From: Lingula anatina
Lineage: Eukaryota > Animalia > Brachiopoda
Direction: 5' to 3'
Assembly: GCA_051362555.1 (NCBI GenBank)
Contig: CM120640.1
Location: forward strand, 26,150,225-26,214,224
DNA: 64,000 bases
Shown here: in pieces, positions 1 to 62,701 of the stretch
Layout: each line of letters begins with the position of its first letter
Numbering within the stretch: position 1 is the stretch's first letter
Made by a program: the position numbers and the translations under genes
Notes under the pieces: generated by a model
The model's input: only the letters and a program-made list of their open reading frames with translations
Told to the model about the DNA's origin: nothing
The model's database searches: none

Positions 1-33
1 GAATGAGAGTTTTTTAACAAAATTTCCCATTAG

Positions 34-9848
<9,815 letters not shown>

Positions 9849-10096
9849 TATGAAGTTGAATTTCTGTTGTTTTCATCTGAAGTCAATATAAAACCATTTA
9901 TAGAACCAAAAAATACAGTAAATTTCAAATAAAAGCATATTCTCACACCCAAAAGTTGGATAAAAATTAAAAGGAGGCTCCCATTCCAAAGTTAATGCCA
10001 TAAAATGGGTATGAAACCAATCAATTCAAAATAAGAACTGCCTTTATCTATTATTTTTGTAATCGCAAGAATCTCAAGAAAAGGTTTATAACTTAC

Positions 10097-23937: not shown

Positions 23938-25050
23938 TTTTTTATGTACAGACACAGATGTGTCTGTACATATTGCCATCACCTGTGTCTGTCGTCGCCG
24001 TCGTCGCCGATGCCGATGCTGATGCCGATGCCGATGCCGATGGCAATGCCGTCGCCGTGCACTTTCACTGTAAACACGATAAGTGGAACACAGTTTTATT
24101 TTTTGCTTTTATATTTACAGAGCTGATGAATATTCATAAAACGCAGGTCAAGTTCGAAAATCAGCATGATCGGGCCATTATTGTAGAAGTTATGCTGTTT
24201 TATCACTTTTCAGCATATATGCAACCCTGTAAACACATTTTAAGGAAAACCGTTAGGCCTGTTGTCATGAAACTCACAAGAGTAATCAATCTTACTAAAA
24301 CGCAGGTCAAGTTCGAAAATTGGCATGATCGGGCCACTATTTTACTATTTATGCTGTTTTTTTCCTTTTTTTCAGCATATATGCAACACTGTAAACACAA
24401 TATAAGAAAAACCGATAGGCCAATTGCCATTAAACTCACAGGAGTGGTCAGTCTTACTAAAATGCAGGTCGAGTTCGAAAATCAGCATAATCGGGCCATT
24501 ATTTAAGAAGTTATGCTGTTTTTTCACATTTCCTCAGATTCAATTCTTAGGCATGTTAACAGTCTTTTTATTTTACTAATAAGATACATTAAAGTGTTTG
24601 TTTGACATTTCCTGCATCTTTACAACATTGTTAGTTGATTATGTAAAAATGATGGTAAACTTGTTATCGTGTATTGTGTAATAAAGTGTCAAAAATGGAA
24701 ATAAACTCATATCATTGCAGTTTGTCAGATTCAATCATTCACTATGTTCAGAATCTCAGAATGGAGGAAATTGGACATTTAACACTGTTCTATTGATATT
24801 TTTCCCATCTCATCAATTATCTTAGTTGATCATATAAAAATTGCAGTAAACTGTTCATTTTGTTTTATGTTAAAAAAGTGTTAAAAATGGAAATAAACCC
24901 ATTTCAGAACAGTGCTGTCTTGTTAAAATTTGATGTTGGATTTGAAGTTTAACAATATGTACTTTTGCATCAGAATTGGCAGTAGCCTATTTTGTGCATA
25001 GTTATTTCCTGCTTTTTGTCTGTACATTTGACAGCTTTGCTGCCTTGTTT
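23938..25050 (+). mobile_element. HINE family 1, complete copy
   Basis: TTTTT-ATGTACAGACA/TGTCTGTACAT head, (GCCGAT)n, internal subrepeats, ends TGTCTGTACATTTGACAGCTTTGCTGCCTTGTTT. Confidence 0.85.
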
Positions 25051-29879: not shown

Positions 29880-32514
29880 AAATTATAGAATATTTTTTAT
29901 TCAACTATTATGTACAATTTTGAATATTTACAGTTGATTTAAAAAGGACTAATAATCAGTAATGAACTACGTAAACGCAATGAATTAATACATAGCAGTA
30001 TTATCAAAAGTTCTAAGATTTTCCATCGTCTTCATCTAGCGTCCGATAATGCAGGTCTTGTGGTCGGAAACTGGTACCAGATGCTCTCGGGCCGTGGGGA
30101 AAAAACCGTCTAAACCCTTCGTGGGGAATGCCGGGAAAGTGCCCACGCCCGGAAAATTCGGTCCTTATAACATGACGAAATCGGTTTCTATTGGCACGGC
30201 GCTGCGTACAGTTCAAGAATCGTCCCGTTTTAGACAGCATTGTGTGACGGAATAACCTTTGTCTTGACTAACTATTCTCTATATATACTATACACGAGGT
30301 GAAGCATAAAAACTTATTAAAGTAATTCTTACAGAAAAAGGCACTGAAGCCAATAAAAAACTAACAAGAGACATAACAATTAAACAGAATCATTTTGACT
30401 TTATCTTGGAGAATTAAAACCATAAATAAAGTTAATCATTTTACAACTGCAAGCATCTTTCAAAACTTGATAATAGTTCTCTTTATGATAAAATGCAAAC
30501 AGATTCAAGTAATATGATTATAACTCGGGAATATCAATGATTTCAACTAAACTTTGATATATAATTCGACTTAAAATACCAGGTTTCTAAAATGTAACTT
30601 TGCACTGAAATCGCAACTACCTGCATGATACAAGTACAGAATAAAGCAAGCTTGCTTCAAAATATTTCGGATCTCACATTACACTGTATGACCGCCCATG
30701 TAAAGTTGAATCTGAATTTTTTTGATCCGGAGAAAAGGTGCATATGTGATGAAGTGGATGTATTTGTCAACTATAACACTTGAGAAAATCTGAATATTAG
30801 TAATGTGATCTCTATCTTGAGAGATGACAGCATCTCTCAAGAAGAGCAGACTGTACAAAAAATATAATGAAATATTTTCTCACACGTAAAATATTTAATT
30901 ACAGATTTTGCACAATCTATCAATGTAAAATCTCTTCATGTAAAAGCGTTTACATGAAGTCAGATTTTACAAAGATGTGAGGGTTTGTTAGTAAGGTTAG
31001 TGTGCAGGTTAAGACCTTTTCAAATGCCATACTGACAAACAACTCCACATCATCAAAAGCACAAATTTGAAAAATGACCATCTCAGATTGAAACAAAACA
31101 CAGACGACCACAAGTGGTGGGAATGTTTTTGTGAGCAAAAAACTATCTGCATTCAGAATGTGGATAAAGCAACTCTATATTCAAATTTATTAATATAATA
31201 ATTATAGCAACTGTAGAGGTAGACTTTTCCTACAGAAGCACACATCTTATGCAATTGATCTTGTATGGAATGAAGAATTATCTTGAACCTCAGTTTTCTC
31301 TTCTGTTATTGAAATAAAATGGTTCACTGCATAAGGTATAAAATACAAATGAAATTGAAGCAATTTCACCTTGACATGTTTGTGACCCATGAACCCCAAA
31401 TATTCTCAGCATCCAAAAGACATTAGACTGTATTCAGTACTGTATATTGCCTTCATTACCATTCCACATTCTCTATATTTGTTTGCAGAAAAAGCCGTGT
31501 CCTTCAACACCAAAACTCGTGGGATGTCCGAGCATCGATGAAAGTGTCCACAGGGCTCCTTGCTAACGCTGTACAGTGTTTAACATCTTGGACATTTGGT
31601 CTTGGGTCGACGTTATCCGACATCATGCAGGCAGGCTGTTTTTATTGGAAAACTCCCAATTCGTAGCCTACAAATGAAATCCAACTTTTACTCAAAAGTA
31701 TGAAAAGCTATATCGAAAGCTTGCAGTAACTGCAACAAAGAAAGTATATCACTGGTATTTACACACCGTTAACATTAATGAAAAGCTTGGTTCTTAAAAT
31801 GATCAGAGCGTTATTTCCAAATGTACAGTGAAATATGCTTCCTTTATTGAAATATATATATTAACTTTTTAGAGTAAGTAGACAGCAGTCTTCAAAAAAT
31901 AAATTATTTCAAACATTTGACAAAAAAGTAAGAAAAGATGTTGCTATATTGAATATTGTAATGTTAGCCTACATGTTAAATTGTTGACTGTCTGTGCTAC
32001 TTCTAATTCTACTGTTTGTTTACATAGGATATAGTTTTTGATCACTGTCAATAATAAGAAATGCCATAATACACCAATAATAATACTTAAAAATTCAGAA
32101 CCACTTATTCTTGATCCCCAATAACTTACAAAGTTATCTTTATAAAGATCCCTCAATCCTGAAGAAGTGTTTCATCTGGAGGTTTGGTAGTTGCAATCTT
32201 CATTTTTAGAATCCACCACTTTTGGTAGCCTGCAAATTTAAATTATTACTTCAAAATGTAATAAAAGTCAACCATTTGTATATGAAATGTGTTTTTAAAG
32301 TTTCAGCAGTTTGATGGGAAATAAATATCAAAAGCACTTTTGTCACAAACTTGGAAAAAACATTCAAGCGAAATATTTTGACATGCCACTGGCGACCTTC
32401 AGACTTAATGTCACAATGGGGTATTGCACAAATTAGTTTTAACGAAGGAAAAGGAATACTAACAGCATTTAAACGACTACTCAAAGACAAGTTTAAGTAA
32501 AGCCTGAACAATCT

Positions 32515-33245
32515 AGATCCAGCGGGAGGAGTGTACTAGTATTCCATCAAGTGTTTAATTTGTGAAGGATTTATATGGGAGAGAAAGAGAAAGTTGAACG
32601 TTAGAGTTAAAGAACACGGGAAGGAATAAGAAAGGGTACCCGAAGAGGGAAAAATACACTACAGCCCAAGGTAGCCTTCTGCTACAACGAACCATCACAA
32701 AAAAACATTGATTGGGAGAGTGCCAAGATTCTACAAAAAGAAAGTGACTGGAGAACAAGAGGCGTAAAGGGAGGCATATAAACCAGGAAAATGCCTAACA
32801 ATCTGAACAATATAGAGAGATGGAAATAAATACTCACTTCTACGGTGGCCTTTTATTACCACAACCACAGCACTGGAGGTGGGGGTGGTAGCTGCTAGTA
32901 TACAATTTCTGGACCAGTGACAACGTCCCGGAGTCACATTGGTGGTGGGTGTTGGGGGCGGTAGCTCCAAGTAATCTGGACCAGTAACCACGCCCTGGAG
33001 TCACATTGGTGGTGGTGGGTGGTGGGGGCGGTAGCTCCAAGTAATCTGGACCAGTGACCACGCCTCGGAGTCACATTGGTGGTGGTGGGTGGTGGGAGCG
33101 GTAGCTCCAAGTAATCTGGACCAGTGACCACGCCTCGGAGTCACATTGGTGGTGGTGGGTGGTGGGGGCGGTAGCTCCAAGTAATCTCGACCATTGACAA
33201 CGTTCTGCAGAATATCGAGACTGTTGAGGATCTGAAAGTTGACGA
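32515..33245 (+). mobile_element. Penelope-like retroelement 3' remnant (degenerate GIY-YIG endonuclease)
   Basis: With frameshifts it reads GV(Y)..KCLICEGF(Y)MGE..RKLNVRVKEH...HKKNIDWESAKILQKESDWRTRGVK(E)A..NNLN..RDGNKYSL, the typical PLE GIY-YIG pattern. Confidence 0.7.
32909..33200. repeat. ~70-bp G-rich minisatellite, ~4 copies
   Basis: Unit ctggaccagtgaccacgcctcggagtcacattggtggtggtgggtggtgggggcggtagctccaagtaat at ~32909, 32976, 33046, 33116 and a partial at 33186. Confidence 0.92.
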
Positions 33246-34667
33246 ATGGCATGTCAAATATTTTGTATGAATGATAAGGTTTTTCCACATCTGTGACAAA
33301 TTAAAAGAGCTTTTTACCTGTGAAAAATGAGCACTGAATTTGCTAGAGTAAATTGTAAATGGAAAACAAATGCCTGCACCGAGTGACAGGTCCCAAACAT
33401 TCTTAAAACAATTGTCTAAGACCTTGCACAAAATGCTCAGTTTGTTGGAGTTGCACTGATAAAAGATTTGTATTATCTATACAATGAATGACAATCTAGT
33501 TCATTTACCCTTATCCTGTCCCATAACTTACCTTGAATGCTCTCTAATCACAATTATTGAAGGGCTCTTGAAACACTATATGATATAGCTGACATGGCTT
33601 TCTCCCTTTTAGCCTTGTTAACCTTGTTAAAATGGACCGTCATCAGGACAGGCGCTCCCCAATGCTATCTGCCTCAACTACAAAATAAAAAATTATAAGT
33701 CAAAAGTTTCCCTCTTTACTTCTCCCACCCAAATCCAATCTACTAACCATAAATATCTTAATCCTAGGAGTGGGTAATGGGTAAAAGACATTGACATTGC
33801 CTTCTGAATGTGAGCTGTCAAATTAATGTGGCTAACGGTTTTTAGTTTTTCAAGGTATGAAAAATCACTTAAGTGTTTTGTTTTCCCCAAAAAACATGAG
33901 TGATATGTACCTTTTAAAGCTTGATAGGTTTCCATCTCTGTGAAACGCCATATGCTTCTGCTGCTCCCCCATGCAGCCCCCTAACATACAGACCATGGCA
34001 AGACTCAACCATGCACCAAGGATTGAATGTGACCCTCTTCTTGCACCTCTTTCAAAAAAGCGGGACTTTATCAGGAATTGCCCTAATTGAGTTCTGTAAA
34101 TAGAAAGGAAAATTTGATAAGTTTTCAAAAATTGTATATCAAAAGCAGTCTGCAGCCAGAAAAATTGTTGGAATCGGTAGATTTCCAGAATGTGTCAATT
34201 TGGTGACATGGCTGTTAGATTTTATCTATAAGTATGAAAAAGAGCTTTTGATTTATTTTAAATGTAACTGTTACATCATGATTCGAGAAAAATGTCAAGG
34301 TCTTGTTAATACAAATATTAATGCAATCCAGTCTAGTCCTATTGAACTTTGTATTCGAACCAGTGAATCAAAATTCAGACATCTATATCTAGTTTTTAGG
34401 AAAGAAGGTGGACTGAATGGCCAGTAGGGTGAAAAATTTATGGCACAGACTGCTGCTGAAAAATTAATTTTAGTGTATTGTTCTCGCCAGTAACACGGGT
34501 TACCTTGCAGGTTTTTCCGCCTCAGTGAAACACCATATGCTTCAGACGCTTCTCCAATGCAGCCTCCTCAACAGACCGTGGCAGGACTCACTGGCACCAA
34601 GGATTGAGGGATGTATCGGAAGTGTGCACGTGGCCCTCTTCTCCTTGCAGTTGCCATGAAACGTTGG

Positions 34668-35150
34668 ACAGGACTCGCTGGACGCTTCCTAGTGCAGCCA
34701 CCTCGTAGACAGACCATGGCAGGACTCGCTGGACGCTTCCCCAGTGCAGCCACCTCGTAGACGGACCATGGCAGGACTCGCTGGACGCTTCCCAAGTGCA
34801 GCCACCTCGCAGATAGACCATGGCAGGACTCGCTGGACGCTTCCCCAGTGCAGCCACCTCGCAACCAGACCATGGCAGGACTCGCTGGACGCTTCCCCGG
34901 TGCAGCCAACCTCGTAGACAGACCATGACAGGACCCGCTGGACGCTTTCCCGGTGCAGCCACCTCGTAGACATACCATGGCAGGACTCGCTGGACGCTTC
35001 CCCTGTGCCGCCACCTCGTAGACAGACCATGGCAGGACTCGCTGGACGCTTCCCCAGTGCAGCCACCTCGTAGACAGACCATGGCAGGACTCGCTGGACG
35101 CTTCCCCAGTGAAGCCACCTCGTAGAGAGACCATGGCAGGACTCGCTGGC
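34668..35150. repeat. 52-bp GC-rich minisatellite, ~9 copies
   Basis: Unit ggcaggactcgctggacgcttccccagtgcagccacctcgtagacagaccat starting at 34718, 34770, 34822, 34874, 34927, 34979, 35031, 35083 and 35135. Confidence 0.95.
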
Positions 35151-35209
35151 TCCAAGGGATGGTCGAAGTAGCTTAAGTGTAGATGTGGGGTGTCTCCTTG
35201 CAGTTGTGT

Positions 35210-37428
35210 CCTGTAAACAGAAATAAAAACGAGATTAGATTTCTTTCATTTCTCAAACCCCCCTTCCAAAAAGAAAAAAGATTACATACCTTAAGGAGTG
35301 TAGTCGAAGTCCCACAGGTGGCGCCCATCATCTATGTCCTGTAAAGAGAAATAAAAACGAGATTAGATTTCTTTCATTTCTCAAACTTCCTTTCCCAAAA
35401 GAAAAAAAGATTACATACCTTAAGGAGTGTAGTCGAAGTCCCACAGGTGGCGCCCATCATCTTCTATGTCCTGTAAACAGAAATAAAAACGAGATTAGAT
35501 TTCTTTCATTTCTCAATCCCCCCTTCCAAAAAGAAAAAAAGATTACATACCTTAAGGAGTGTAGTCGAAGTCCCACAGGTGGCGCCCATCATCTTCTATG
35601 TCCTGTAAACAGAAATAAAAACGAGATTAGATTTCTTTCATTTCTCAAACTCCCCTTCCAAAAAGAAAAAAAGATTACATACCTTAAGGAGTGTAGTCGA
35701 AGTCCCACAGGTGGCGCCCATCATCTTCTATGTCCTGTAAACAGAAATAAAAACGAGATTAGATTTCTTTCATTTCTCAATCCCCCCTTCCAAAAAGAAA
35801 AAAAGATTACATACCTTAAGGAGTGTAGTCGAAGTCCCACAGGTGGCGCCCATCATCTTCTATGTCCTGTAAACAGAAATAAAAACGAGATTAGATTTCT
35901 TTCATTTCTCAATCCCCCCTTCCAAAAAGAAAAAAAGATTACATACCTTAAGGAGTGTAGTCGAAGTCCCACAGGTGGCGCCCATCATCTTCTATGTCCT
36001 GTAAACAGAAATAAAAACGAGATTAGATTTCTTTCATTTCTCAAACTCCCCTTCCAAAAAGAAAAAAAGATTACATACCTTAAGGAGTGTAGTCGAAGTC
36101 CCACAGGTGGCGCCCATCATCTTCTATGTCCTGTAAACAGAAATAAAAACGAGATTAGATTTCTTTCATTTCTCAATCCCCCCTTCCAAAAAGAAAAAAA
36201 GATTACATACCTTAAGGAGTGTAGTCGAAGTCCCACAGGTGGCGCCCATCATCTTCTATGTCCTGTAAACAGAAATAAAAACGAGATTAGATTTCTTTCA
36301 TTTCTCAATCCCCCCTTCCAAAAAGAAAAAAAGATTACATACCTTAAGGAGTGTAGTCGAAGTCCCACAGGTGGCGCCCATCATCTTCTATGTCCTGTAA
36401 ACAGAAATAAAAACGAGATTAGATTTCTTTCATTTCTCAAACTCCCCTTCAAAAAGAAAAAAAGATTACATACCTTAAGGGGTGTAGTCGAAGTCCCACA
36501 GGTGGCGCCCATCATCTTCTATGTCCTGTAAACAGAAATAAAAACGAGATTAGATTTCTTTCATTTCTCAAACTCCCCTTCCAAAAAGAAAAAAAGATTA
36601 CATACCTTAAGGAGTGTAGTCTAAGTCCCACAGGTGGCGCCCATCATCTTCTATGTCCTGTAAACAAAAAATAAAAACGAGATTAGATTTCTTTCATTTC
36701 TCAAACCCCCCTTCCAAAAAGAAAAAAGATTACATACCTTAAGGAGTGTAGTCGAAGTCCCACAGGTGGCGCCCATCATCTTCTATGTCCTGTAAACAGA
36801 AATAAAAACGAGATTAGATTTCTTTCATTTCTCAAACTCCCCTTCCAAAAAGAAAAAAGATTACATACCTTAAGGAGTGTAGTCGAAGTCCCACAGGTGG
36901 CGCCCATCATCTTCTATGTCCTGTAAACAGAAATAAAAACGAGATTAGATTTCTTTCATTTCTCAAACTCCCCTTCAAAAAGAAAAAAAGATTACATACC
37001 TTAAGGGGTGTAGTCGAAGTCCCACAGGTGGCGCCCATCATCTTCTATGTCCTGTAAACAGAAATAAAAACGAGATTAGATTTCTTTCATTTCTCAAACT
37101 CCCCTTCCAAAAAGAAAAAAAGATTACATACCTTAAGGAGTGTAGTCGAAGTCCCACAGGTGGCGCCCATCATCTTCTATGTCCTGTAAACAAAAAATAA
37201 AAACGAGATTAGATTTCTTTCATTTCTCAAACCCCCCTTCCAAAAAGAAAAAAGATTACATACCTTAAGGAGTGTAGTCGAAGTCCCACAGGTGGCGCCC
37301 ATCATCTTCTATGTCCTGTAAACAGAAATAAAAACGAGATTAGATTTCTTTCATTTCTCAAACTCCCCTTCCAAAAAGAAAAAAAGATTACATACCTTAA
37401 GGAGTGTAGTCGAAGTCCCACAGGTGGC
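35210..37428 (-). repeat. ~132-bp tandem array, 17 copies, each an intron-like ~80 nt plus an exon-like 52 nt
   Basis: The cttaagg anchor recurs at 35290, 35419, 35551 ... 37264, 37396. Minus-strand unit: AAG|gtatgt...tctaat...ctcgtttttatttctgtttacag|GACATAGAAG...CCTTAAG. Confidence 0.95.
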
Positions 37429-37789
37429 CTCCACCAGTTTGCAGTCTGCTTCCTGGACCTGTAATAAAAAGAAACCTGGAAAGCATGGGAATATGCAATG
37501 ACACTACGACTCCAGCCCACGACAGCAAAAAGGTGAAGTATCCTGCGAAGATGACCGAGCGACGATTCCTCGTGGGGAGAAGCGAAGATTTTAGCTGGCC
37601 AGCTAAGAGAAACGCCGAATCCACCGTCTAGACGTCTGCGTGTGCAGGGAACAATATGTCGAAGAGCGATGCGTTGACGTAGGATGAGTAGAAGATTCGG
37701 AGAAATGGGAGTCGACTCCCGTGTCCTTTGTGCTTGATACAGGGCGCAGCACATGGCATCCGTCCTGTTGCTCTAGATCTGTCCGCTGT

Positions 37790-37830
37790 TGAGTGAACGC
37801 ACTTTTAAAATTTTGCGCTTTTATACCTTT
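37790..37830 (-). promoter_or_regulatory. TATA box plus initiator-like core promoter facing the exon-intron array
   Basis: Minus-strand TATAAAAG (~37824-37817) followed ~30 nt later by TTCACTC, then a CpG-rich stretch. Confidence 0.45.
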
Positions 37831-38385
37831 GTTGACGTATAGTCACATGATGGCGTTCTTGTTGTCATCAATGGTCAACTTGTTCAAAGGGGATGGCCTT
37901 TGATAGTGATGCGAAAATGTTGGTAATAATATCTTATCGACATATACATTTTCTTTTATATTTTATATTTTGATTATTCTGCCTGTCAGTTTGTTTATAA
38001 TAAGAGTAATAAGTTCTAAGCAGTGTCTGTGAAATGTGCAGGCAAATTTGATGAAAATTTCTGAGCAACATACCTTCTCCCTAAAATTTTTATAGGTACG
38101 ATGTTCGTTAAGCTGGTAGCTGTGAACTTCTCGCAGGCTACTTTAGTGTGCGTGTATTTGAACACTGATCCAAAATGTGGATAATGTAATTTGGCGTAGG
38201 GTGACTGCATTTTTGAGGCAGCCTGAGGGAGTATGGTTGTTCTGATTGTAGTGAATTGTAGAGAGACAATTGGAAGTACACTGGACTTAGCATGTTCAGT
38301 CACCCAAGTACTCTGAAACACATTTTGTAATCAGCTGACTTGTTATTCTGAAAAATGAAAAAACAAATTATATTGATTTACAAAA

Positions 38386-38597
38386 CTGGAAGATAGAAGC
38401 AGTGGATCATATTACTTATGCCAGGCAGAAGAAACGACTGAATGTATATTTTTATATTCAAAACGTCTACTGATTTAGGTAATAATTAATAGCCTGGAAG
38501 ATAGCAGCAGTGGATCATATTACTAATGCAAGGCAGAAGAAACGAGTGAATGTATATGTCTATATTCAAAACGTCTACTGATTTAGGTAATAATTAA
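38386..38597. repeat. Two-copy ~108-bp direct tandem duplication
   Basis: ctggaagatag..gcagtggatcatattact...aaacgtctactgatttaggtaataattaa at 38386 and 38494. Confidence 0.9.
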
Positions 38598-40470
38598 CAA
38601 CTGACGTCTCCCTTCATGGCGTCGGGTTATCAGTACTCCCACACCAGTAACATGAGTTATGAGTTGAGCAGAAACAGAAAAAGATTTTTTATAAAGATAA
38701 TGCAAGTATATGTGTAGGCCCATTTATCTTTTTTTATATTACTAAACGTAAGAATTGTTTGTCCAAGTGAAACTTTACTTACATCAGCCTAGCAACTAAA
38801 TCTGACGTTTTAACGTCTCCGAAAATAACTAGAATTTTTTTAATAACGCACTAATGCGGCCACCTTCGAGGTGTCGCCCGGTTTTTAAAAATTGAAAAAA
38901 GAAACTTTTCGGGGCGTCTTTTGTCGCGGGTCATTATTTTCAGTTGTTTGATGTTTTTTTGTAATATTTTAGCCATTGATAGAATCTATAATTCAGTTAC
39001 ATCCACGATTAGCTAGACGAAATGGTGACAGGGAAAAGTCAAATTTTTTAAACGGCAAAAACTGCATTCTCTTAGAAAGCAATTAGCAAACATTCATTAC
39101 CAGGCACTGTGAAAAATTCAACCGAAGTTGAAGACAAAATGTGTCAAAAATAAACGTGCATGTCGTAATACCTATTTATAGCAGTCTAATTTTTGTTAGT
39201 ATTAAAAACGTGTAAATATTATCCACATAGGATATTTTTAAAGCCTTCGATATTTAAAATATTTAAACTTCCCATACTTTGAGGCATGCATGAGTCGGAA
39301 AATGTTTGCATAATTACATAAAAAACTAGAATTATCTCTTTATGTGACCACAGTTTACTCATGTGCCTTACATCATTCCCTTAAACCCTTTCCCAATATC
39401 GATTTCAGATATTTTTGACACATTTTGTCTTCATCTGAATCACGTGAACGTTATCAAGTGTCATAAGGCGTACATTACGAAAATATTTAGGTCTTGGAGT
39501 TTTAAAATTTATTTTAGGAGAGGTAAAAAACCCCAACCCCATCTAATATATATTGGATACATTCGTAGGCTTATGTCCTTAGAACTAGGCGTACAAAATG
39601 TGTCTTCTAGCTAAAGTTATTATTATGGTGTATGTGTAATTTAAAAAAAACTACGTAAGAGTGACAATAGGTCATGTGTTTCGAATGCACCCCCACTCTC
39701 CGATCAGTCATTACTTTTGTATAATTCACAGTCCATCTTCGTTGTAGTTTGTGACTTTACGTCATTTCTTAGTGAAGCGGTGTTGTCCTCAATTTACCTT
39801 AAATGTCCAAATTACTAAGAAGAAACCACTTGCAAGAATTATAAGGCTTTTTATACTGCTAGGTCTATAGACGTGATACACACGATATTTTGCAACCCCA
39901 CAAAATCTGTTTCTTAAAATTTTGGTTCCACCACAAAGCTTAGCACTATCATTCTTTTTTGCTTTATTGATATATTTTCAGTACATAAATAACCATTGTC
40001 TGTTGCCCAATTTTGCACAAAATTAAGATAATCCCCAAAACCTCATTAATTGTGTTTCCTCCATCCCAAAAAATATTAAAAATTTCTCCTCATAATTTAG
40101 TAGTGCACTGGCATCTACACAGTACATAAATGTATCATTATAATAACATCTTGTTCTTACTGATAACATAATTAGCTTAATTCCATAACAATTCTAAAAT
40201 GTTAATAACAATGAAAATTCAAAGTAGATGGCAAGATTCTTATTGTGCTGATAAAGACAAAATATGTAAATTCAATACTGATTAGGTACTGTATACTGGC
40301 TCATTGAAAAAAGGGAACCGTTTCACAAAAAAATTAAGCTTAGACTGCTAAATCTGGATAGCCAACTATACAAAGTCAACTTTGCGATATTGTCTTACAA
40401 CTACAATTTTTTAAGAATGATTGGTCCACAGTTGATGAGTAGAATATACATAAATGGGCTACTGACACCA

Positions 40471-43400
40471 ATTCAATTCAATTCAATTTATTTTATTAAA
40501 GTCTCACCCATAGATACAATTAAAAAACAATAAAAATTAAAACAGTCATCAGGCAGTTCTATACAGAGAACTATGAGAGACTAAAAGAACTAATTACAGT
40601 TTAAATACATAAAATTTCTTCTTAATCCTAAGGAAAGGCTACAGGCTTTGGCAGTGCTAAAAATCATTTTTGGATCATCAATCAGGAAAAGAAATTTGCT
40701 TAGTTCATCCAATAAATCAAAATCCGGCTTAAAACATTTAGCAGTTCTAATTAAATCAGTACGATAATCATTAAAAAATGGACAATTAATTAAAAAGTGA
40801 ATCTCATCCTCAACACAACCTGATTCACAGAGTACACACGTTCTCTCCAGCACTGGAAGTTGTCATACCGTCCAGTTTCTATTCTGAGTGGGGCCACCCC
40901 ACATCTCAGCTTAGCCAATGCCCGCCGGTGCTTGAGCGATAAAGTTGGTTTCTTAATGTATTCACTAACTACCAAGTCTTGCTTAAACAGTCTGAATAGC
41001 CTCAGCTTATTTCCACCTCCATTTCTACGTGGGGTATCATCCCATAGCTTCGCCAACCAATCGGAGTGACATTCAAAAGCTACACTCTCCCTAACACAAT
41101 TAAGTGTACTAGCCTTCGATATATCATTATCAGTTACGTATAGGTGGCTTACTCCTAGATCACTAAATTTACCTTTAACCCTAGTTATCCAATTTTTCTT
41201 TCCATTGTTTGATACACGTAAACTCCATAAAAACACCTTTTTAGTCAACCTATTACAATCCATATTAGCTAATCTACACCAGAAATTTGTCACATTAATT
41301 AACTGCTTTTCAAAAGGCAAAATCCATCCCATTTCAGCACGGGTGGCAGCGGCTGGCGCGTACCTACCCACGCCCAAAAAATACCTACAAGCTCTATTGA
41401 AAACAGCATTAATCTGACTAAATTCCTGGAGTCCCCATATAGCAGAACCATATTCTAACACAGGAGCTACAAGTGCATCGTATAATTTCGTAAAGCATGC
41501 ATAGGGCATGCCCCCACAAGCCTTGCATTTTGCAATTAGAAGACCTAAAGCTCTGCTTGCAGACTTAGCTATACATGATACAGTCTTATTCACATCAAAG
41601 TGTTCAAAATACCACATACCCAAGTATTTATATTTTTCAACAATGTTTACTGTAAAATTGCCACATTTAAAAACATAATTTGTTCTAGGTATTTTAGGGG
41701 ACCTAAAATGAACTATCTGGGTCTTGTCCACATTCAGAGTCAACTGCCATTTATAACACCACTTGTGCACCACATTAAGCATTGACTGTAAATCTTCCTC
41801 ATTCTTGGCCAAAAGCACAACGTCATCTGCATAAAGAAGCGAGCAAATCAGCTCATCGTTTACATTAATGCCTTTACCCAGAGCTTTCAGATCATGTACC
41901 ATATCATTAATGTAAATGTCAAAAAGTAAAGGTGACAACAGGCACCCTTGTTTTACTCCAGTTTCAATATCAAAGAAACCTGTTGTATAGTTATTTACCC
42001 TAACACAGCACTTTGGGTTATCATATAAAGCCTGGAGGGAATTCATAAAATTTCCACATATTCCTAGTTTAAATAATTTATACCATAAAAGAGACCTATT
42101 AATTCTGTCGAATGTTTTTCTTGCATCGATGTAACAGGCATATATGCTCGGCTTTTGCTTTAAACTATTTTCTATTATACTGGACATTACATACATGTGA
42201 TCTAAACACCCACGGTCTTGTCTAAAACCATTTTGCTCGTCAACTATTATTTCATTATCTTCTGCCCACGTCGATAATCTCCTATTCAGAATAGATGTGT
42301 ATATCTTATATATGCTAGATGATAATGTTATTCCTCTATATTCTAGTGGGTTGCATGAATTAGCACCACTACCTTTCGGTATGGGACTAATGACAGACCT
42401 AAGCCAATCACTAGGGACCACAGAATTAGCAAAACAGTACTTAAACAGGTTGTACAAAAATATAATAGTTGCAATTGTTTTTTAAGACCTTCGAAGGCAG
42501 GTCATCAAGCCCGGGGCTTTTACCACACTTAGCACCATTAACTGCAAGCTCAACTTCTTTAAACGTAATATCAGTGTTAAGACTGGCACTCAAATCTGGT
42601 GTATCAAGTTTACCCTGTCTATAACTATAAAGTTTCTCATTAACCTGGGCTAAGAAAAATTTATCAAAACTATCACAATTTTTATCTGACACACCTGCAT
42701 AGTCATTTTGCCATTTCAATAAAACCTCAGTGATATCCGTGGAGACAGTTCCATCATCTCTCACTACTTCCATGGGAATGGTACTTTTTCTATCCTTCTG
42801 AATTCCGATGCGACCAATATCTCTCCAGAAGTTCCGTGGATCACTGGTTTGTTTTTGTAAGAGTTCTTCTTGCGATTTACGCCAAAACTGGCGTTTAGCT
42901 CGTTGTTTAGCATGGTCAAAATCACGCCGTTTGCTTACATAATCATTTTTTAATTGTAAAGAGATACTACTATTTGATTTCACTGATGACCAAAGCCGCT
43001 CCGAATCCCTGACATTTTCCCACATTATTTGAAGCTCATCGTTCCACCATTCTTTATTAGGTCTAAAATACTTCTTTGCCCGGGTGCTTCCACCGCCCAC
43101 AGATCTATAAGGAAGTTTGGTTTTCATTTCACTCAGTAACACAGATTTAAATTATAAACATTATCAATATTTGATTGAGTGAGATCCATCGTGGGAATAT
43201 TTTGTAACAAAGCATTAATTTTAAGAGAAATTCCATTAGAATTCATGAAGTCGCTTGGCACTGTATCCACATTAAACTTGTAATGAACTTCCGTTGGCAC
43301 ATGTGAATGGTGAGAGCTGTCAACTGCATTCCAAGGTGAGAGGTCGAATTCCCAGGAGAGCAGAGAATGGTCGGGTAAGGAACAGACCGGTCTTAGGTCT

Positions 43401-43718
43401 AAAGCATTACATAATTCATTAACCCTTTGCACAGTAAAATTTTGAATCATAGGTAGGTTCTCATGTGTTGTAATGCAATAATCAACCACAGCATGACCAC
43501 GGGCTGACACAGATGTAAAGTCATTTTTAGATGCACAAGTATCGCGCCCATTAACAATGCAGCAGCTAGTGTTAATCAAAAAATCAAGTAACAGATCACC
43601 ATATTGATTGGTAATAAAATCGATAGTGTTACGTTCAGGTAGAACATCCACCCCAGCAAGTAAAAGTAAAATCGATAGTGTTACGTTCAGGTAGAACATC
43701 CACCCCTGCAAGTAAAAG
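40471..43718 (-). mobile_element. 5'-truncated non-LTR retrotransposon (APE-RT ORF2, possibly RTEX-like), frameshifted
   Basis: APE C-terminal motifs (GHAVVDY, PDHSLL), KSPGLDDL, YRGITL, EQNGFR, GVKQGCLLSPLLF, LLYADD, YKYLG and C-terminal RIETGRY..C..C..EDEIHF..C. 3' AATAAA plus (TTGAA)n tail at ~40471-40497. Frameshifts near 43140, 42450 and 40855. Confidence 0.93.
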
Positions 43719-43867
43719 ACTTGCCAAGACAATCAAACTGTAAATCAAAGGAAAGTGAAAAGAAAGTAAAAAGACTGGAAAAAATGAGGCAAAATTGATA
43801 ACTTGGTTAATGAGCGAACAATACTCTAGTTTTGATTAAATCAGAACTTTTCTTGCACCTATTTTTA

Positions 43868-45533
43868 TATTTGCCATTTTGTAAGTGAAACAAGGCAGCA
43901 AAGCTGTCAAATGTACAGACAAAAAACAGGAAATAACTATGCACAAAATAGGCTACTGTCAATTCTGATGCAAAAATACATTATGTTAAACTGCAAATTC
44001 AACATCAAATTTTAATTATCCTCAATAGGTAATACCAATGTAATTAAAATATGTGACAAGTTTACACTTTGAAAATGTATAATTTCAAGAAAAAGAAGTC
44101 AATTCGACTGCTTTTCCAACTCAGGCTGAATTTTAGTCCTGTATTTCTTTTTTGAAAGTTTGGCAATCATAAGTAACATGGTTTTCCCATAATGGTCATC
44201 ATGGCAGCAGCACCCAAAATTGTGTTTTCTTCTATTCTGATGCCATATTACAAAATGGTTAACAGCATAATGACCGTCAATTTTTAATAATAAAATATAC
44301 GTATCATGGATTTTCAGAAAATGTGACTAGCATGGGTCTTCAAGCCCGTGGAACTTCAAAGTCACACCTTGAAAATGCCAATATGTGAAAAATTAAAATT
44401 TCACAAAAAACTGTTTAACTGGCAGTAAGAATTACCAAACAGACTGTATTTCCTACTGAAGCTGTATTTTAGTCCCATGTTTCTTTCCTGTAAGTTTGAG
44501 AACAGTAATTGGCATGGTTTTTCTTAAATGGTCATCATGGGAGCAGTGCCCAAAATAATTTTTTTTTTCAAATTTTGATGCAATATTACATAATGTTTAA
44601 CAGCATAATGACCACCAATTTTAATAATAAAATATTAGTATTATGGATATTCAGAAAATGTGCCTAGCAAAGGTCTTCAGGCCCATGGAACTTCAAAGTC
44701 ACATCTTGAAAATGCCAAAATGTAAATGAGACAGCACTGTTCTGAAATGTTTTTTTTTTTTCATTTTTAACAATTTTTAACATAAAACAAAATTAACAGT
44801 TTTCTGCCGTTTTTATATGATCAACTAAGAAAATTGATGAGATGGAAAAAATATCAACAGAGCAGTGTTAAATGTCCAATTTCTTCCATTCTGAGATTCT
44901 GAACATAGTGAATGATTGAATCTGACAAACTGCAATGATATGGGTTTATTTCCATTTTTGAAACTTTATTACACAATACACGATAACAAGTTTACCATCA
45001 TTTTTACATAATCAACTAATAATGTGGTAAAGATGCATGAAATGCCAAACAAACACTTTTACGTATCTTATTAGTTCAATTATGAAACTGTTTACATGCC
45101 TAAGAATTGAATCTGAGGAAATGTGAAAAAACAGCATAACTTCTAAAATAATGGCCTGATTATGCTTATTTTCGAACTCAACCTGCGTTTTAGTAAGATT
45201 GACCACTCCTGTGAGTTTAATGACAATTGGCCTAATGGTTTTCCTTTTAATGTGTTTACAGCGTTGCAAATATGCTGAAAAGTGAAAAAACAGTATAACT
45301 TCTACTATAATTTGGCCCGATCATGCTGATTTTCGAACTTGACCTGCGTTTTATGAATATTCATCAGCTCTGTAAATATAAAAGCAAAAAATAAAACTGT
45401 GTTCCACTTATCGTGTTTACAAGGAAAGTGCATGGCATCGGCATCGGCATCGGCATCACCATCGGCGACGACGGCGACGACAGACGCAGGTGATGGCAAT
45501 ATGTACAGACACATCTGTGTCTGTACATAAAAA
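43868..45533 (-). mobile_element. HINE family 1, complete copy
   Basis: 3' hairpin and subTIR at 43868-43900; 5' hairpin head ending tgtctgtacataaaa at ~45533. Confidence 0.85.
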
Positions 45534-46229: not shown

Positions 46230-47176
46230 TAGACAGCACTGTGCTGAAATGGGTTTATTTCCATTTTTAACACTTTTTTAATATAAGATGAAATAAACAG
46301 TTTACTGCCATTTTTATATGATCAACTAAGAAAATTGATGAGATGGGACAAATATCAATAGAACTGTGTCAAATGTCCAATTTCCTCCATTCTGACATTC
46401 TGAACATAGTAAATGATTGAATCTGACTGATATGAGTTTATTTCCATTTTTGACACTTTATTACACAATACACGATAACAAGTTTACCATCATTTCTACA
46501 TAATCAACTAACAATGTTGTAAAGATGCAGGAAATGTCAAACAAACACTTTTATGTGTCTTATTAATTAAATAATAAGACTGTTAACATGCCTAAGAATT
46601 GAATTTGAGGAAATGTGAAAAAACAGCATGACTTCTAAAACAATGGCCCGATTATACTAATTTTCAAACTCAACCTGCATTTTAGTAAGATTGACCACTC
46701 CTGTGAGTTTAATGACAATTGGTCTATCTGTTTTTCTTATATTGTGTTTACAGTGTTGCATATATGCTAAAAAGTGAAAAAACAGCATAACTACTAAAAT
46801 AGTGGCCCGATCATGCCGATTTTCGAACTTGACCTGTGTTTTAGTAAGATTGATTACTCCTGTAAGTTTCATGACAACAGGCCTATCGATTTTCCTTAAA
46901 ATGTGTTAACAGGGTTGCATATATGCTGAAAAGTGAAAAAACAGCATAACTTCTACAATAATGGCCCGATCATGCTGATTTTCGAACTTGACCTGTGTTT
47001 TATGAATATTCATCAGCTCTGTAAATATAAAGCCAAAAAGTAAAACTGCCCTCCACTTATCGTGTTAACAAGGAAAGTGCACGGCGCCGGCATCGGCATC
47101 GGCGACGGCAACGACGGCGACGACAGACGCAGGTGATGGCAATACGTACAGACACATCTGTGTCTGTACATAAAAA
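46230..47176 (-). mobile_element. HINE family 1, 5' portion
   Basis: Head tgtacagacacatctgtgtctgtacataaaaa at ~47146-47176, with microsatellite and subrepeats. Confidence 0.8.
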
Positions 47177-48938: not shown

Positions 48939-51343
48939 TTATGGTTTTTCAGTGAAATCTATATCCCTTTCTTCCTTAGTGAAATTTGAGCTTTCGCTAG
49001 AGGGTTTAAAATATGGATCCTTGTATGGTACTGCATCACCGATATATGTCACTTCTCTGTGTAGTGTGGGCATGAAACCTAAAATAAGACGACTTTTATT
49101 TACTAATAATTTAGCCTTGTGTCATGAGAACCAATTTTGAAAAAGAATTTTGAATTACTTAATTTAGATAACCACTTGGATATGTTTTTACACATGCTAC
49201 AATTTATTATCTCTTTGCAGAAGTGCACTCACCAAATCGTCTTGCTCTTTTTATTTGGACCACTATTCTCTTTTGCATTGGTATGCATAAACCAGTAATC
49301 TTACTGCTGTATATTCTGCCAGTATGGGGAGAAATAAACTGGTTAAGCAGTTGAGTATTCTGTAACAAAAATACAAGAAACAAGATCTAGAAGTGCAAGT
49401 ATCTGAAGCAATCCCCAAGTTTTGTCTTCATATATTACCAAGAACAAAAGATTAGTGCAATTTAATTATAAAACACAACATATTGTATAATCAAAACTTT
49501 TTTTTACATTCCAAAAACAATTTTACAAAATTACACACAAAAATACCTTGTAATCCAGCTTAACATCATATTCACATAAGTAACACTTTCTTCGCTTTTT
49601 TTTGTATGGATTGCTCATCTGCCTGAAAGGCTTTGAAAAAAAAAATCCACATTAAACCCTAACAAATAATCCAGCATATTCTTGCCAACTGTCTGTCCCT
49701 GAAGCCCATTTATTTTCTATTTACCATTTCATTTCAATATCTGAGTACTATAATACCTAGAAGCTGTAAACAAACTCTAAAACCTTACAAGGGACTGTGC
49801 TACACGGAACAGATGTTCAAAATGTATCTTGGAGGCTTTAAGTGCCAAGTTACAGAGCAGACAACAGCCTTGAAAGGATATGGTGTGTTTTATAAAAATA
49901 ACTCAAGCTATATTCTACCTTATCAGACTTTTGTTCTCTTAAAATTTTAGCTGCCCTTCGCTCTTGTGCTTGAAATGCACGAATCAGTTTTTCTCGTGAG
50001 AAGCCCCCGTCATCTTTTGACTGCAAATCATGAATGTCAGCATCTGTAGCTTCATCTTGTTTCCCACTAAATTCATCCTCATCATGGATAAAATCTTTTT
50101 GCAGCCTAGCTGATGTTGTAAAATTTGCACTTCCTAATAAATATTGAAATAGAGCAATTAATGCTAATATTTTACCTTCCCATGCTGTGATGAAAAAGTT
50201 ATCACTTGTCTATCAAATGTATGTAGTTTATAATTGCGCATGCACGCACACACATATGGATGCACCAGTTGTCCGTTGTTTGCCTCATCCTAAACTGATC
50301 GTGTTAGTAAAATGCTTTAGGCAGGGTCAAGTATCTCTATAACATTGACAGATAAAATGTTAAAGTTCTTTAGTCAACATGTCAACACGAGCTACTTGTA
50401 CTCGTTACTGTTGATATTGTACAGAACTTCCTCTCATGTCGCTGACCAGCTAGAAGGGTTTCAAATGATGAGATGTCATGTCAAAATATGCAAATCTGGT
50501 GATGAACAAGAATGTAAAGCAGCGAACTTTGAGAACATTTTGCAGTTTTATTTGAAAAGATCCTAATCTAATATAAATGTATTTAGATAAAAGAAATAAC
50601 TTTAATGGGGTAATAAAAAAAATGAGGGGTGGCAATAGTATTCTTTTTATGTTATGCTTCTCAAATGTGTGGTTGTGTAAGCAGCTGCTCCCACACTGAA
50701 AATTATTTTTTTTAAGTTGCCATACAGTATCTCACAAATTTGAGATTTGGACTTTAAATAATTATTTTGATTTCCCTTGAAAATAATCTTGAACAGAGTT
50801 AACTTTTTGTTAGAAAAAAAAATCTCAGACGTACATATCTTTGCAATGTACATATTTTGGAAGGACACGTGTAACATAACCATCTTTCCCCCCCTCCCAT
50901 ATACTTTCAAAGCAATTTTACATTGAGCCCTTATAAACAAGTCATCTCTTCGAAGTCTTGGGCCTCAGTTTATAAACTGAATTTATTCGGACCTGCTATA
51001 CATTCGGCCTTACATTTACAGGAACAACTCTAAACATGCTGCACGCACTTCACAGCAGGTAAGTGTGCAAGGCCAGATACCAAGACAAATTGAACTTCCG
51101 AATTATCAAAAACATATACAGGATGCCCGAGACTATTTAAAGTGTCCGGGGGGAAAAGATCATGGAGTTTAGGTCCAGGAGACGTTCCCTTACTTAAACT
51201 ATTAAGTTTTTGATATTCTCACCTATAGATCGCAAGCTTTTAGAAACATCTATGTTTACCACTTTCGTCGCATTTACATTAAAATACGTGCGCCAAACAT
51301 AGCGTAAATTAGGGAAAGCTTTTTTAAGTATGGACGTCGCCAT
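48939..51343 (-). CDS. MRPS18C: Mitochondrial ribosomal protein S18C (bS18m), 5 coding exons
   Basis: Basic presequence MATSILKKAFPNLRYVWR, then MSNPYKKKRRKCYLCEYDVKLDYK|NTQLLNQFISPHTGRIYSSKITGLCIPMQKRIVVQIKRARRF|GFMP, the S18 zinc-ribbon signature; GT-AG phases are compatible. Confidence 0.9.
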
Positions 51344-51554
51344 TGTGATGGGTCCCGCACTTATTTACAAACTTCAAAATTATATTGATATATGAAAGTG
51401 TTTTATGTACATTCAAATGTCCTTTCAGAATATTTTTAAAGCCATTGAAATTTGATTGAGTTCGTTTTGCTTAATATCATAATGGTACTTCTCTTCGATT
51501 ATTTGTAGAATTTTGGTGCAGTGCGCTGCGGGACATTCACTCTGGAAAACAGCA
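51344..51554. promoter_or_regulatory. Bidirectional promoter MRPS18C/ELMOD3
   Basis: Divergent ATGs at 51343 (minus) and 51555 (plus), ~210 bp apart. Confidence 0.65.
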
Positions 51555-54500
51555 ATGGCGGACGAGGTAAACAAACGAGCATCTCTGGAAATGTGTCAGT
51601 CATTGTAAATGAGTTGCAAGCTCGTAATGGCTCTCGAGTCACTGGCTGTAAAAGTTCTGTTACATGGTGTTTGTTCTTTTGTTGTTACGTGTAAAATCAT
51701 GGCACTGAACGTCACTTTTTTTACCGGAAAATCCAGAACCTATTAGAGACGAAATGTGAAATGAATAATTTACCCAAACTAAAAGAAGAAAGATGTACAT
51801 GTTGCGGTTTAATATTATCCTTTCAAAGCAAAACAGCAACTAAACACAAAAAAGCTTTAAGTACTCTAGTGGATTTTTTTGTTTAAAGTGAGAAATGTGA
51901 GTTAAATTTATGTACTGGTACACATCTTGTTCTTGTTTATTTCAGCTCGGCTTCCATTTATAAATATGGTATCCATTGCTTGCACATGAAACTTCTTTGA
52001 GTGCAATTTATATTCAAGATGAAACAAACATCTGCAGCAAGAACATTACCTGCACCTAAATGGGGACAGTCAGCTAATAACAAGGTTAGACAACACTACC
52101 TTCTGTAAAACTGGAGGTTTCTTATTTTATTGAGGTCTTTTTGCTTTACATGAATCAGAAGTAAATATTGTATTCTGAAGAATGAGATCATGGCATGTAT
52201 GGCTTCTTAATTTTCAAAGAGTTACAACTGAGCATGTTTATATTTCTTTCAGACTTTTTAAAACAAGTGAAATATTGAAGAAAGAATACACTTTTTTTCC
52301 TCCTTTACTAGCTTTTGTCAAATAAGAAATTGTTTATGTTACCATCAAAATATTAAATCAATTCTTTTTATTGAAGAAAAATGGAGCAGGAGAACCAGCA
52401 GATAAATACCAGGTATGTATGACTGCATATGTAATGATATAACATTTTTAGCTTTGTAAACATTTATCCAAACAAAGTGTTTGTAATACATAACACATGT
52501 AATAAGTAATAAGTAATCAATAAATTGTAAGAAATCAAATATTTGTGATACATTAAAACTGTAAGAAGTAAGGTTTAGTCAAAAATATCAATAAATTGTA
52601 AGAAATCAAATGTATACTAAATTTGAAGACGAAATATCTATATGTAGATCACTGCTTATTTTTGTTGATGTCATAATTTTATCTTTCATTCTTTATTTAG
52701 GAAGGACAGGTAGATGAAAATGGAGATGTTAATATAGAAATGAGGAAGAAAACTCATTGCGAAGATGGTCAAAGTATGAACCATTTGAATTATGTTAATA
52801 TCAATTAACTAAATTAACTGTCAGAACTAATTACTGATTAACTATCCTTTTTAGCATGTTTTATTATTTTATTTTAAATTGATGTCTTGTTTGCTTAATA
52901 CTTCAAAATGTCTGAATTTCTGTTGAAGTCTTCTTTGTTGAAAAACATTTTCTTCTATAATGTATTGGTTTGACATTTCAGGTGAATCTGAAGAGAACTC
53001 GGACCTGGCTGCTGCCATAGCAGAGTGGGACGAGGTAGAAACTGTCACTCCAGGTATGCTGCAATCATAATTGATGTGAAGAATTTTAAAATTGTCTTCA
53101 TGTAATTTTTTATGATTGTCCATTTAAAGGAAAGCAAATTATTTAATTATGAACAAAATCAAACCATTTCGCCTAATAGGGCCAAACCATTCTGTGATAA
53201 TCAATTATTTGTTATACATTTGGATTATACATATAGTACTTAGAATATGGATATGTCCTTTTAGTAAAGCAGTGGGCCAGTGGTACAGATGTTACATATT
53301 TATAATATTTAATCATGTCATAAAACAGTAGCATTCTCCACTTGAATACAACTTGACTGTAGTTTCCAAAGAAAGGTGTTGTTATAATGAAATAGTAAGC
53401 TTTGAAAATTTTTGGCCTCAATTAGTACAACTTTCATTGCATTAAGGTATTCATAATTGCAGTTTGTCTAATCTGAATTATCTAAATCACACTTTTGATA
53501 AATTTATTTCAGTAAGTCTTACTGAATAATATTTTAGGTGTAAAGTGTTATGAATGCCTGTTGAAACAAAAGTGTCTTCAGCTGTTTTGCTATTGTTCCT
53601 ACATTAGCACCTGTCTTTTCTGAATCATAATTTGTATACTGGATTAATCTGATTAATAATGTTACTAATAGATATTACTTTTTGCAAACTTTTTTAAAAT
53701 GATAGTCTACTAATGTCTCTTCTTTTAAGGGGTTGACCAGCAACTTATGGGTTCTGAAGGTATAGCGTATCCTAATCTTGTTCCCCTCTCTGTGTGTTTT
53801 TACTCTCTGCATCAATCCTTATACACCTACAGTATCTACACCTAGTGACAAAGCATTGATTTTACCTAATTTTGAACACCTTTTGGTAGTAGCTAGAAGA
53901 GTTAAGTAATAGTTTGCTTTGCTTATTACTGGTTGTTTCTTTTAAAAATAGAGGTGCTAGCAAAAAATGGTGAAGAATTTGACGAGCCCTTCTGGCAGTA
54001 TTGTTGTGATAGTAGTTGCAATTATCAAATCATTAGTGAGGTTTCATGGGTTTTATAGTGATATTTTTCTGGAATTGAAAGGTGCAGTGTTTCTGATTTT
54101 TATAAGTTTATGGATGTACAAAACACTTAGTAGTGCACTAATGACCACAGCATTTTCATTAATTATGATTTTGTACCTTAATGTTTTAACTGCATGTTGT
54201 ACACTGTTCTGCAATTTGATGGTATAGTATCTATATTTTGATAATGTAGTGTAGTAATTTACTGTCCGATCACAGTTTATAGAATAAAAAAATGTAACAA
54301 GGAAAAAAATTGTCAGATAGTCTGTAATTTTGTATGTTTAATACTGGGGTACTTGAAATAATCTAAATCACAAAACTGTCAACTTTTACATTTTTCACAT
54401 TACAACTAACATAGTTAATACCTTTGTGAAAATGCAACCAAGGTAAAAGTTTGTGATTTCTTGTTTTTAAAAATATTGTAGGTGCTCCCAATTTTTCTAA

Positions 54501-55166
54501 ACAGAGCCAGCCGTTGTCATTCAATGAAGCATTGCAATATTATCAGACAAAGGACTTATCTGATGTCAGGGTAAGAAAACAGATGCATTACAAATTATAA
54601 ATACTTCTATTTTCTCTGAAGTTGCAAATATGATTGCTTCTATTAAAGATTATTTGAAACTTTGCCATATTGTAACTTATGTTTTCATTGGCTTATTTAA
54701 TTGCTGAAGAATTTAAAAATTAAGATGTCATCAGGGTGGGAAAAATATATAAGTTTTTCATTTCTTTTATACTCTGAATTTTCATTTGTTTTTATATTTC
54801 TAAAGCCTCTTATTAAAACCAGCATAGAAAGAAGGGGGTTTGCAGCATTTAAGCATTTTCTGTTGGGACCACCTAAACTTCACAGAGAACTTTTACAGGA
54901 AAGAGACATGATATTTTGCATAGCAGCAAGTAAGCCCTTTTTTTAAATAAAGTTTTTTTAATACAGACACTGTAAGTATCTGTATATATTTTGATTGGTC
55001 TGTCTGTCTGTGTCATCGCTGTAGCTGTCCAACACATGATGTTCACTCCATAACTACCAGACCGTATTTTTGTTTTACCTTAAATTTACTGAGTAGCTTT
55101 GTTTGGTAAAGAAGAGGGTTGCTTTTGTAAATCTGCATGATCGATTTACATTTATGGTAATTATTC

Positions 55167-55197
<31 letters not shown>

Positions 55198-62090: not shown

Positions 62091-62701
62091 TTTTTATCTA
62101 GAAATCAGAAAACCAAATTAAAAAAAAAATAATAAGTTAGTCATTATAAAAATGTACTTGTTATTACACGTTTGGCATTACTTTACCATAAAACTGCTTG
62201 TCGCAGCAAACACGTACATGTAGCTAATATTTAGATTTGCACAACAGCAAAGACTTTTACAGTGTTACTATTTTAACTTAGAATGTTAGATTGGAATCAA
62301 GGCAGCCACACGAGTTTGCGCTTCATCATTCATGCAATGTTTCTCCTTACATTAGCTGCATGGACCATGACAAGAAGTAAACACTCGTATTATTGCTCCT
62401 GAAGTACAGCTCGGGGTACACCTGCCAACAACTGTTTGATTACAAAACGCATTTAAGCGAATTTCCCTATATCGGCTGATTAGGTCTTGATCTGTTCTCG
62501 ACCCAACTCGCTCTAAACAATACATCTCAAAAAGAGGCATTTATTTGGAGACGAACAGTTTCGGTTACAAGTATCTTGTAACAAAATTTTCGATTGGACG
62601 ATGAAAATAACCACCTATCAAAATATCCTTTTCATTTAGGTCCACTACTAACGTTAGAGGGATTCCCCAAACAACGAGACGGGACACATTACAGCATCAA
62701 A

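Follow-up and report, generated by a model that had tools for sequence, protein, structure and literature searches.

The long noncoding RNA (lncRNA) FIRRE contains a local repeat, the RRD, that forms 7 of its 13 exons in human and 11 of its 23 exons in mouse, and the published account describes the RRD as a tested nuclear retention signal that is common to mammals (PMC4820808). Many repeated noncoding exons and introns are also joined in one long transcript in the C19MC host gene and in the SNORD115/116 and Bsr arrays as these are presented in the literature, and there the introns carry miRNAs or snoRNAs (PMC6346411; PMC12429941). In young human paralogues, internal tandem repeats at exon-intron boundaries vary; the study that describes them reports that 66% of the intron cases also have a repeat-retaining transcript and that 9 of 27 of the repeats lie in noncoding RNAs (PMC2812944). 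A single-strand tandem-repeat transcript that is dense in splice sites and incompletely spliced has been described in chicken (LL2R RNA; 10.64898/2026.03.19.712899).

Here we describe an array of 17 short introns in a 64-kb window of Lingula anatina DNA (the whole stretch that was analyzed, 64,000 nucleotides). By analogy, its transcript appears to work like the repeat-built spliced noncoding transcripts FIRRE, the C19MC host gene, and the human tandem-repeat paralogues, and it differs from each of them in defined ways. As in FIRRE, a local, locus-restricted repeat forms many exons of a spliced and probably noncoding RNA. In FIRRE, however, the repeat is the exon, as described in PMC4820808, whereas the Lingula unit comprises an exon and a whole intron, is 132 bp long, is 97% identical between copies, and is mostly unspliced; and the RRD is shared by mammals, whereas relatives of the Lingula array were found within Lingula only, in protein-level searches. 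The introns of the C19MC, SNORD115/116, and Bsr arrays, according to PMC6346411 and PMC12429941, have small-RNA cargo, whereas the Lingula introns gave no Rfam matches and their predicted hairpins are not significant. The human paralogues, as reported in PMC2812944, share with the Lingula locus a minisatellite expansion that alters exon-intron structure in recently duplicated genes, but they have on average 4 copies of a 30 bp unit and their new introns arise from cryptic sites, whereas in Lingula a complete pre-existing intron and its exon were copied together 17 times. In the account given of LL2R (10.64898/2026.03.19.712899), donors are in threefold excess and poly(A) signals are few, whereas in the Lingula array donors and acceptors are balanced and the RNA is polyadenylated. 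The Lingula array is distinctive in its compactness, in its number of copies, and in splicing that was measured and mostly fails. Our literature search found no report of this locus or of a noncoding exon-plus-intron minisatellite in lophotrochozoans, although supplementary gene or lncRNA tables of Lingula genome papers may cover the locus.

On balance, we think it probable that the array forms the central part of a likely noncoding gene, transcribed and polyadenylated, in which an exon-plus-intron unit was amplified recently and the introns are spliced inefficiently, one by one. The locus offers a natural experiment in intron multiplication at an early stage, with 17 near-identical, consensus-strong introns placed around 52 nt exons and mostly retained. 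These introns are free of coding constraint, and the array makes it possible to ask why strong short introns fail when they are dense, be it through crowding, through hairpins, or through decay of the spliced form. It also bears on how repeat-built lncRNAs such as FIRRE begin.

Architecture of the Array

Tandem Repeats Finder reported a tandem array at positions 35207–37428 with a period of 132 bp, 16.9 copies, and 97% matches. On the minus strand (35211–37395), the sequence resolves into 17 introns of 79–80 nt (80 nt in 13 of them and 79 nt in 4) that alternate with 16 noncoding exons, and RNA reads show the array to be transcribed and partly spliced. Every intron runs from the donor AAG/GTATGT through CTAAT to the acceptor TTTACAG/GACA, with the branch-point A 25 nt before the acceptor, and the signals of a U2-type intron (GT donor, branch point, pyrimidine tract, and AG acceptor) stand in order in 17 of 17 copies. 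By a loose rule of our own for this combination of signals, it was absent from all 1758 background 132-mers taken from the window, and shuffling the unit 5000 times produced it once. We took intron 1 (37316–37395, minus strand) as the type copy; it comprises a GTATGT donor, a U-tract, a G-run, the CTAAT branch, the pyrimidine tract, and TACAG, and its exact removal is seen in reads, although reads with an intron removed are not assignable to a single array copy. Repeat exon 1 (37264–37315, minus strand, 52 nt) is the type copy of the exon and is likewise supported by sequence and reads. Among the 16 internal repeat exons, 12 are identical 52-mers, 3 carry one substitution, and the last is 49 nt long.

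A preliminary description of this DNA had proposed a satellite of 17 copies of a complete intron-plus-exon unit. Its count holds for the introns, but the full repeat exons number 16. The ordered splice signals, the intron of about 80 nt, and the 52 nt exon (49 nt in the last copy) that it read from the sequence are found in all copies, and its view that the amplification was recent is supported. It had also argued that stops in all three frames of the exon exclude a protein repeat; every copy has them, and we accordingly set aside a repeat-protein gene with tandem exon modules. Its picture of array edges that run into unique sequence has to be abandoned, because the upstream exon has at its 3' end 33 nt that are identical to the repeat exon and the downstream exon, exon B, holds a 52-nt repeat with relatives at other Lingula loci. 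No joint that used an acceptor at 37459, within the upstream exon, was among those listed in any of the four runs analyzed, and reads continue through this position.

The preliminary description had further stressed that the splice signals are invariant. This is true but uninformative as evidence of selection, because only about 9–11 mutation events separate the copies; that these all missed the 20 signal bases has a p value of 0.16–0.23, and no sign of selection on the splice signals was detectable within the array. Array units 2–4 recur as units 6–8, which fits the duplication of a block by unequal crossing-over or slippage. We suggest that one exon and its working 80 nt intron, copied from an exon and intron that existed before, were multiplied recently, and likely by one of these two routes; the splice signals would then be inherited from a single ancestral intron.

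Folding predicted two hairpins per intron, one of them over the pyrimidine tract, and in all four of the introns folded they were not more stable than those of shuffled sequences (z −0.6 to −1.8). Rfam gave no matches at E values up to 1 across positions 30000–40500 of the window. On these two results we rejected a mirtron, snoRNA, or other small-RNA host array.

Transcription of the Locus

We placed RNA reads from four of the nine raw-read runs labelled Lingula anatina (X1, X2, X4, and X7) on positions 37264–38380, a stretch that takes in the first exon together with intron 1 and a single repeat exon. About 6% of runs X1, X2, and X4 and about 25% of run X7 were used, and 249 (X1), 6 (X4), 55 (X7), and 321 (X2) reads were placed. 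The animals sequenced were other individuals, and paralogues may have contributed some of the reads; run X7 is unstranded and more diverged, and only 2 of its 55 reads are 99% alike. Runs X1, X2, and X7 derive from poly(A) or oligo-dT libraries, and libraries of this kind deplete circular RNAs.

Divided by first-mate direction, the depth over the array was 143–147 against 3–4 in X1 and 197–204 against 0 in X2. Under the usual library convention this strong bias indicates minus-strand RNA, the orientation given in the preliminary description, and it excludes DNA contamination in these two runs. A stranded transcript of more than 200 nt, as expected of an lncRNA, is therefore present. Depth was 6- to 11-fold higher over the array than over the unique 5' part, and some reads step back by 132 bases, which reveals head-to-tail units in other animals; the array is thus neither an assembly artefact nor private to one animal.

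At the other end of the stretch covered (38100–38380), reads in the plus direction reach a depth of up to 13–14 in X1 and X2, many of them with several differences. They possibly represent a divergent transcript of the same promoter region, or a paralogue.

Splicing and Intron Retention

An exon end joined to an exon start at the exact predicted sites was present in 6 reads of X1, 8 of X7, and 10 of X2, and in none of the only 6 reads of X4. This exact GT/AG join thus occurs in three of the four runs, which come from two studies, and it is a minority form. The preliminary description had predicted such a junction in RNA and had noted the absence of its k-mer from the genomic array; both points were borne out, the exon-exon junction 16-mer having no match in the 64-kb window even with two mismatches allowed. 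Independently of these runs, the RefSeq models X1 and X2 of LOC106172600 translate ...SLLK directly followed by DIEDDGRHLWDFDYTP, which corresponds to exon 1 joined to the repeat exon, and from its sequence this gene would be the array locus itself or a very close copy.

Junction reads could also originate in DNA, if some alleles or paralogues carried intron-less 52-nt copies and the array were an unspliced transcribed minisatellite. The family does include an intron-less 52-nt repeat, and in three X7 reads (37328–37478) the pyrimidine stretch of the first exon is joined directly to the 3' end of the intron, as would be expected of an allele without exon A and intron 1, a sign of structural variation at the array edge. 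The intron-less repeat is unrelated in sequence, however, and the joined form is absent from the window. As GT and AG mark the exact joining point in three runs from two studies, and the RefSeq models carry the join as well, we consider a DNA origin very unlikely.

With the other listed rows classed as spliced or retained by our own scheme and added (11 loose-end rows stood outside the listing), the spliced share of junction-informative reads was 6/75 in X1, 15/28 in X7, and 17/134 in X2; estimates from depth were 0.07, 0.43, and 0.08, respectively. Retention was about 90% in X1 and X2 and about 45–55% in X7, and the spliced share differed strongly between runs (Fisher p 7e-7). Because the exact exon-exon join appears in only about 1/10 to 1/2 of the informative reads, splicing of the array is likely inefficient. 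In five X2 reads, a single spliced junction is flanked on both sides by intron (joint from 37428 to 37264, with 64 letters on the shorter side), and single molecules are therefore patchworks.

These proportions do not agree with the preliminary description in one respect, its expectation of a 52-nt ladder: the main poly(A) product is not a ladder of spliced 52 nt exons, as retention is about 90% in two runs and about half in the third. It had also held that a finding of unspliced transcripts alone would speak against its proposal; junction reads show that the RNA is not exclusively unspliced, but the unspliced form dominates. An efficiently spliced micro-exon cassette that yields mainly a 52-nt ladder or circular RNAs could account for the existence of junction reads and for their share of about half in X7. 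It does not account for the predominance of retention in X1 and X2, and if the introns are removed independently, the probability that all 17 are removed is 1e-17 at 10% splicing and 8e-6 at 50%. We regard such a cassette as highly improbable. Since the repeat exons are identical, a back-splice and a linear splice are indistinguishable in short reads.

U-tract-binding proteins that sit next to the donor as well as the acceptor, as in Drosophila msl-2, are a candidate cause of retention. Crowding on 52 nt exons is another candidate for the retention of introns with strong signals.

The difference between runs in spliced share could reflect regulation, and so function; it may instead reflect genotype or library, because X7 is unstranded and more diverged. 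Retention of about 90% in X1 and X2 against about 45–55% in X7, despite strong consensus signals, would be compatible with a functional detained-intron scaffold, in which 17 donors, branch points, and U-tracts within 2.2 kb gather U1/U2 snRNPs and U-rich binding proteins at the locus of the RNA and splicing is switched by tissue or state. The two predicted hairpins per intron, with one over the pyrimidine tract, would suit such a role, and there are precedents in the sources as far as they describe them: LL2R repeat RNA recruits splicing factors (10.64898/2026.03.19.712899), and U1 sites hold RNA on chromatin (10.1101/310433). The hairpins match shuffles in stability, however, the array is young and without a sign of selection, and the run difference has the other potential sources given above, and we therefore judge a scaffold function unlikely. 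We find it distinctly doubtful that the working part of the RNA is a string of 17 complete introns, blocked by structure and variable in copy number, onto which spliceosome parts and U-rich binding proteins are loaded in the nucleus, with release by tissue- or state-dependent splicing; if this were true, the repeat number in the DNA would set the size of a sink for splicing factors.

According to the reading that we prefer, that of a probably noncoding gene with recently amplified and inefficiently spliced units, the introns would be spliced singly, with a low and sample-dependent probability. Most introns are kept in most of the poly(A) RNA, which would stay nuclear. In spliced molecules that are exported, translation would stop early, with many exon junctions still to follow, an arrangement that is generally expected to trigger nonsense-mediated decay; losing spliced molecules in this way would shift the balance further toward the unspliced form. 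We see in the array RNA less a tuned device than a by-product that is tolerated in a fast-evolving family of repeat RNAs. If the sample difference is regulation, the array would give a nuclear RNA tuned by repeat number in a little-studied phylum; if it is not, the array would be a neutral by-product.

Coding Potential and Relatives

The first open reading frame (ORF; 37302–37754, minus strand, ATG at 37754) encodes 150 aa with intron 1 kept and 121 aa when it is spliced, and it terminates in the first repeat exon in either case. If all 16 repeat exons are skipped, a frame of 334 aa runs into exon B; the junction required lies beyond the stretch covered by reads (37264–38380). These frames raise the alternative of a small protein gene, in which the first ORF is translated and the array serves as its 3' UTR, or else the repeat exons act as poison exons. 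The skip-all frame, the family's four RefSeq models annotated as "uncharacterized protein", and in-frame deletions of 1 and 3 codons that distinguish the two LOC106172600 isoforms favor this alternative. The share of silent changes among read variants in the first ORF was 9 of 23 (p 0.10 against 25%, the 23 tested being those inside the first ORF among the 40 variants listed of 115), and together with the in-frame deletions in the RefSeq isoforms it provides a faint hint of coding.

The reading frame is not stable, however. The C-terminal frame of the RefSeq models of LOC106172600 (132 and 136 aa) is not that of the window ORF; isoform X1 is identical to it over 96 residues and then continues in a different frame. 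This C-terminal change corresponds to a 1-nt indel, the extra base being present in 4 of 17 and 4 of 24 reads. Deletions of 7 nt and 1 nt within the first ORF were present in 10 of 26 and 10 of 18 reads of run X1, and a stop at codon 81 was present in 5 of 5 reads of run X7. Frames also shift among paralogues. Lingula models similar to exon B are LOC106164805, LOC106153014, and LOC106173768; one paralogue model uses a single piece of window DNA in two frames, −1 and −3, another uses a further frame, and in one the frame continues across a relative of the short array intron. With these frameshifts, the stop codon, and no relatives found outside Lingula, we think it quite unlikely that the locus is a small protein gene.

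The protein-level searches for relatives returned Lingula models only, and the paralogues are known through protein models and reads. Among 1.84 billion proteins, no relative outside Lingula was better than E 1e-4; four weak matches (E 1e-4 to 7e-4) were to unnamed proteins, two of them unrelated-looking repeats, and were dismissed as noise. No Pfam family scored above its cut-off in the minus-strand frames, and the Protein Atlas look-alikes were unnamed bacterial clusters and uninformative. The predicted ORFs look like spurious frames in a Lingula-specific family of repeat RNAs. Since the predicted frames shift between copies in a family found only in Lingula, the locus is probably noncoding, and at the level of sequence it has no conserved reading frame, as is typical of an lncRNA.

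A 430-aa repeat ORF on the plus strand was rejected, because it is frameshifted by 131-nt units and there is little or no plus-strand RNA; of its five Pfam matches, no stretch passed alone.

The LOC106172600 isoforms also show substitutions and in-frame deletions that are spread along the first exon, which suggests that two tandem copies of the 5' end have been merged into one gene model.

Gene Structure Around the Array

A candidate TATA box (TATAAAAG; 37818–37825, minus strand), whose function is predicted from its sequence, lies 31 nt before an initiator-like TCACTC at 37796. Read depth across 37720–37833 drops from 11–30 to 2–6 in runs X1 and X2; no sharp start was called, and the drop is in line with the predicted start of minus-strand transcription at about 37794. 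The first exon (37396–37794, minus strand, about 400 nt) was delimited from read depth and from homology to the unit; it closes with 63 nt that represent a diverged repeat-exon copy and end in the first donor.

After the last array intron lies exon B (34504–35210, minus strand, 707 nt), into which 11 reads of X1 and 13 reads of X2 pass from that intron and whose 3' donor is a prediction. Exon B contains a second, intron-less tandem repeat (34669–35149, minus strand; 9.2 copies) that also has a period of 52 nt. It has no detectable similarity to the repeat exon (alignment p about 0.58), and the equal period of the two repeats may be due to chance. All three minus-strand frames of this second repeat are nearly stop-free, and it occurs in at least three other Lingula gene models.

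Four further minus-strand exons are predicted from the DNA alone. Predicted exon C (33911–34093) shares 79% likeness with the end of exon B, and the sequence around its acceptor is similar to the 3' half of the array intron (none of 500 shuffles was as good; this was 1 of 10 intron ends tested). Predicted exon D (33532–33677) is followed by predicted exon E (32838–33231), which contains 4.3 copies of a 70-nt tandem repeat (32908–33202, minus strand), and by predicted last exon F (31830–32229), with AATAAA at 31843–31848. Older kinship links the flanking exons, and one flanking acceptor, to one another, and the gene thus looks as though small exon-intron pieces were duplicated again and again to assemble it, the 17-fold array being the most recent case.

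In four X2 reads with a loose end at 37313, sequence like the end of exon B or C, compared by eye, is joined to a repeat-type exon; this seems to reflect a paralogue with its modules in a different order.

No conserved protein genes lie in the stretch around the array, which is bounded by a helicase gene on one side and a LINE-type reverse transcriptase on the other. The helicase gene (1–9900, minus strand; Pfam Helicase_C) is presumably HELQ, and the reverse transcriptase belongs to a frameshifted non-LTR retrotransposon (40790–43732, minus strand) with an open frame of 563 aa (Pfam RVT_1). Farther along the window are an ELMO-domain gene (49850–59000, plus strand) and a protein O-mannose kinase gene (60781–62093, minus strand), whose exon at 60784–61551 matches Lingula anatina at 99% identity and its next match at 57%.

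Other repeats are present in the window. Upstream of the promoter, a 108-nt direct repeat occurs in two copies that are 94% alike (38386–38597), and among transposon-like open frames a 458-bp repeat occurs in three copies that are 97% alike (11519–15142). A dispersed family with internal 159–162-bp tandem units and a GCCGAT microsatellite is represented at 7141–7527, 24137–24531, 45118–45421, and 46610–47024, and its many copies in the window lie in both orientations.
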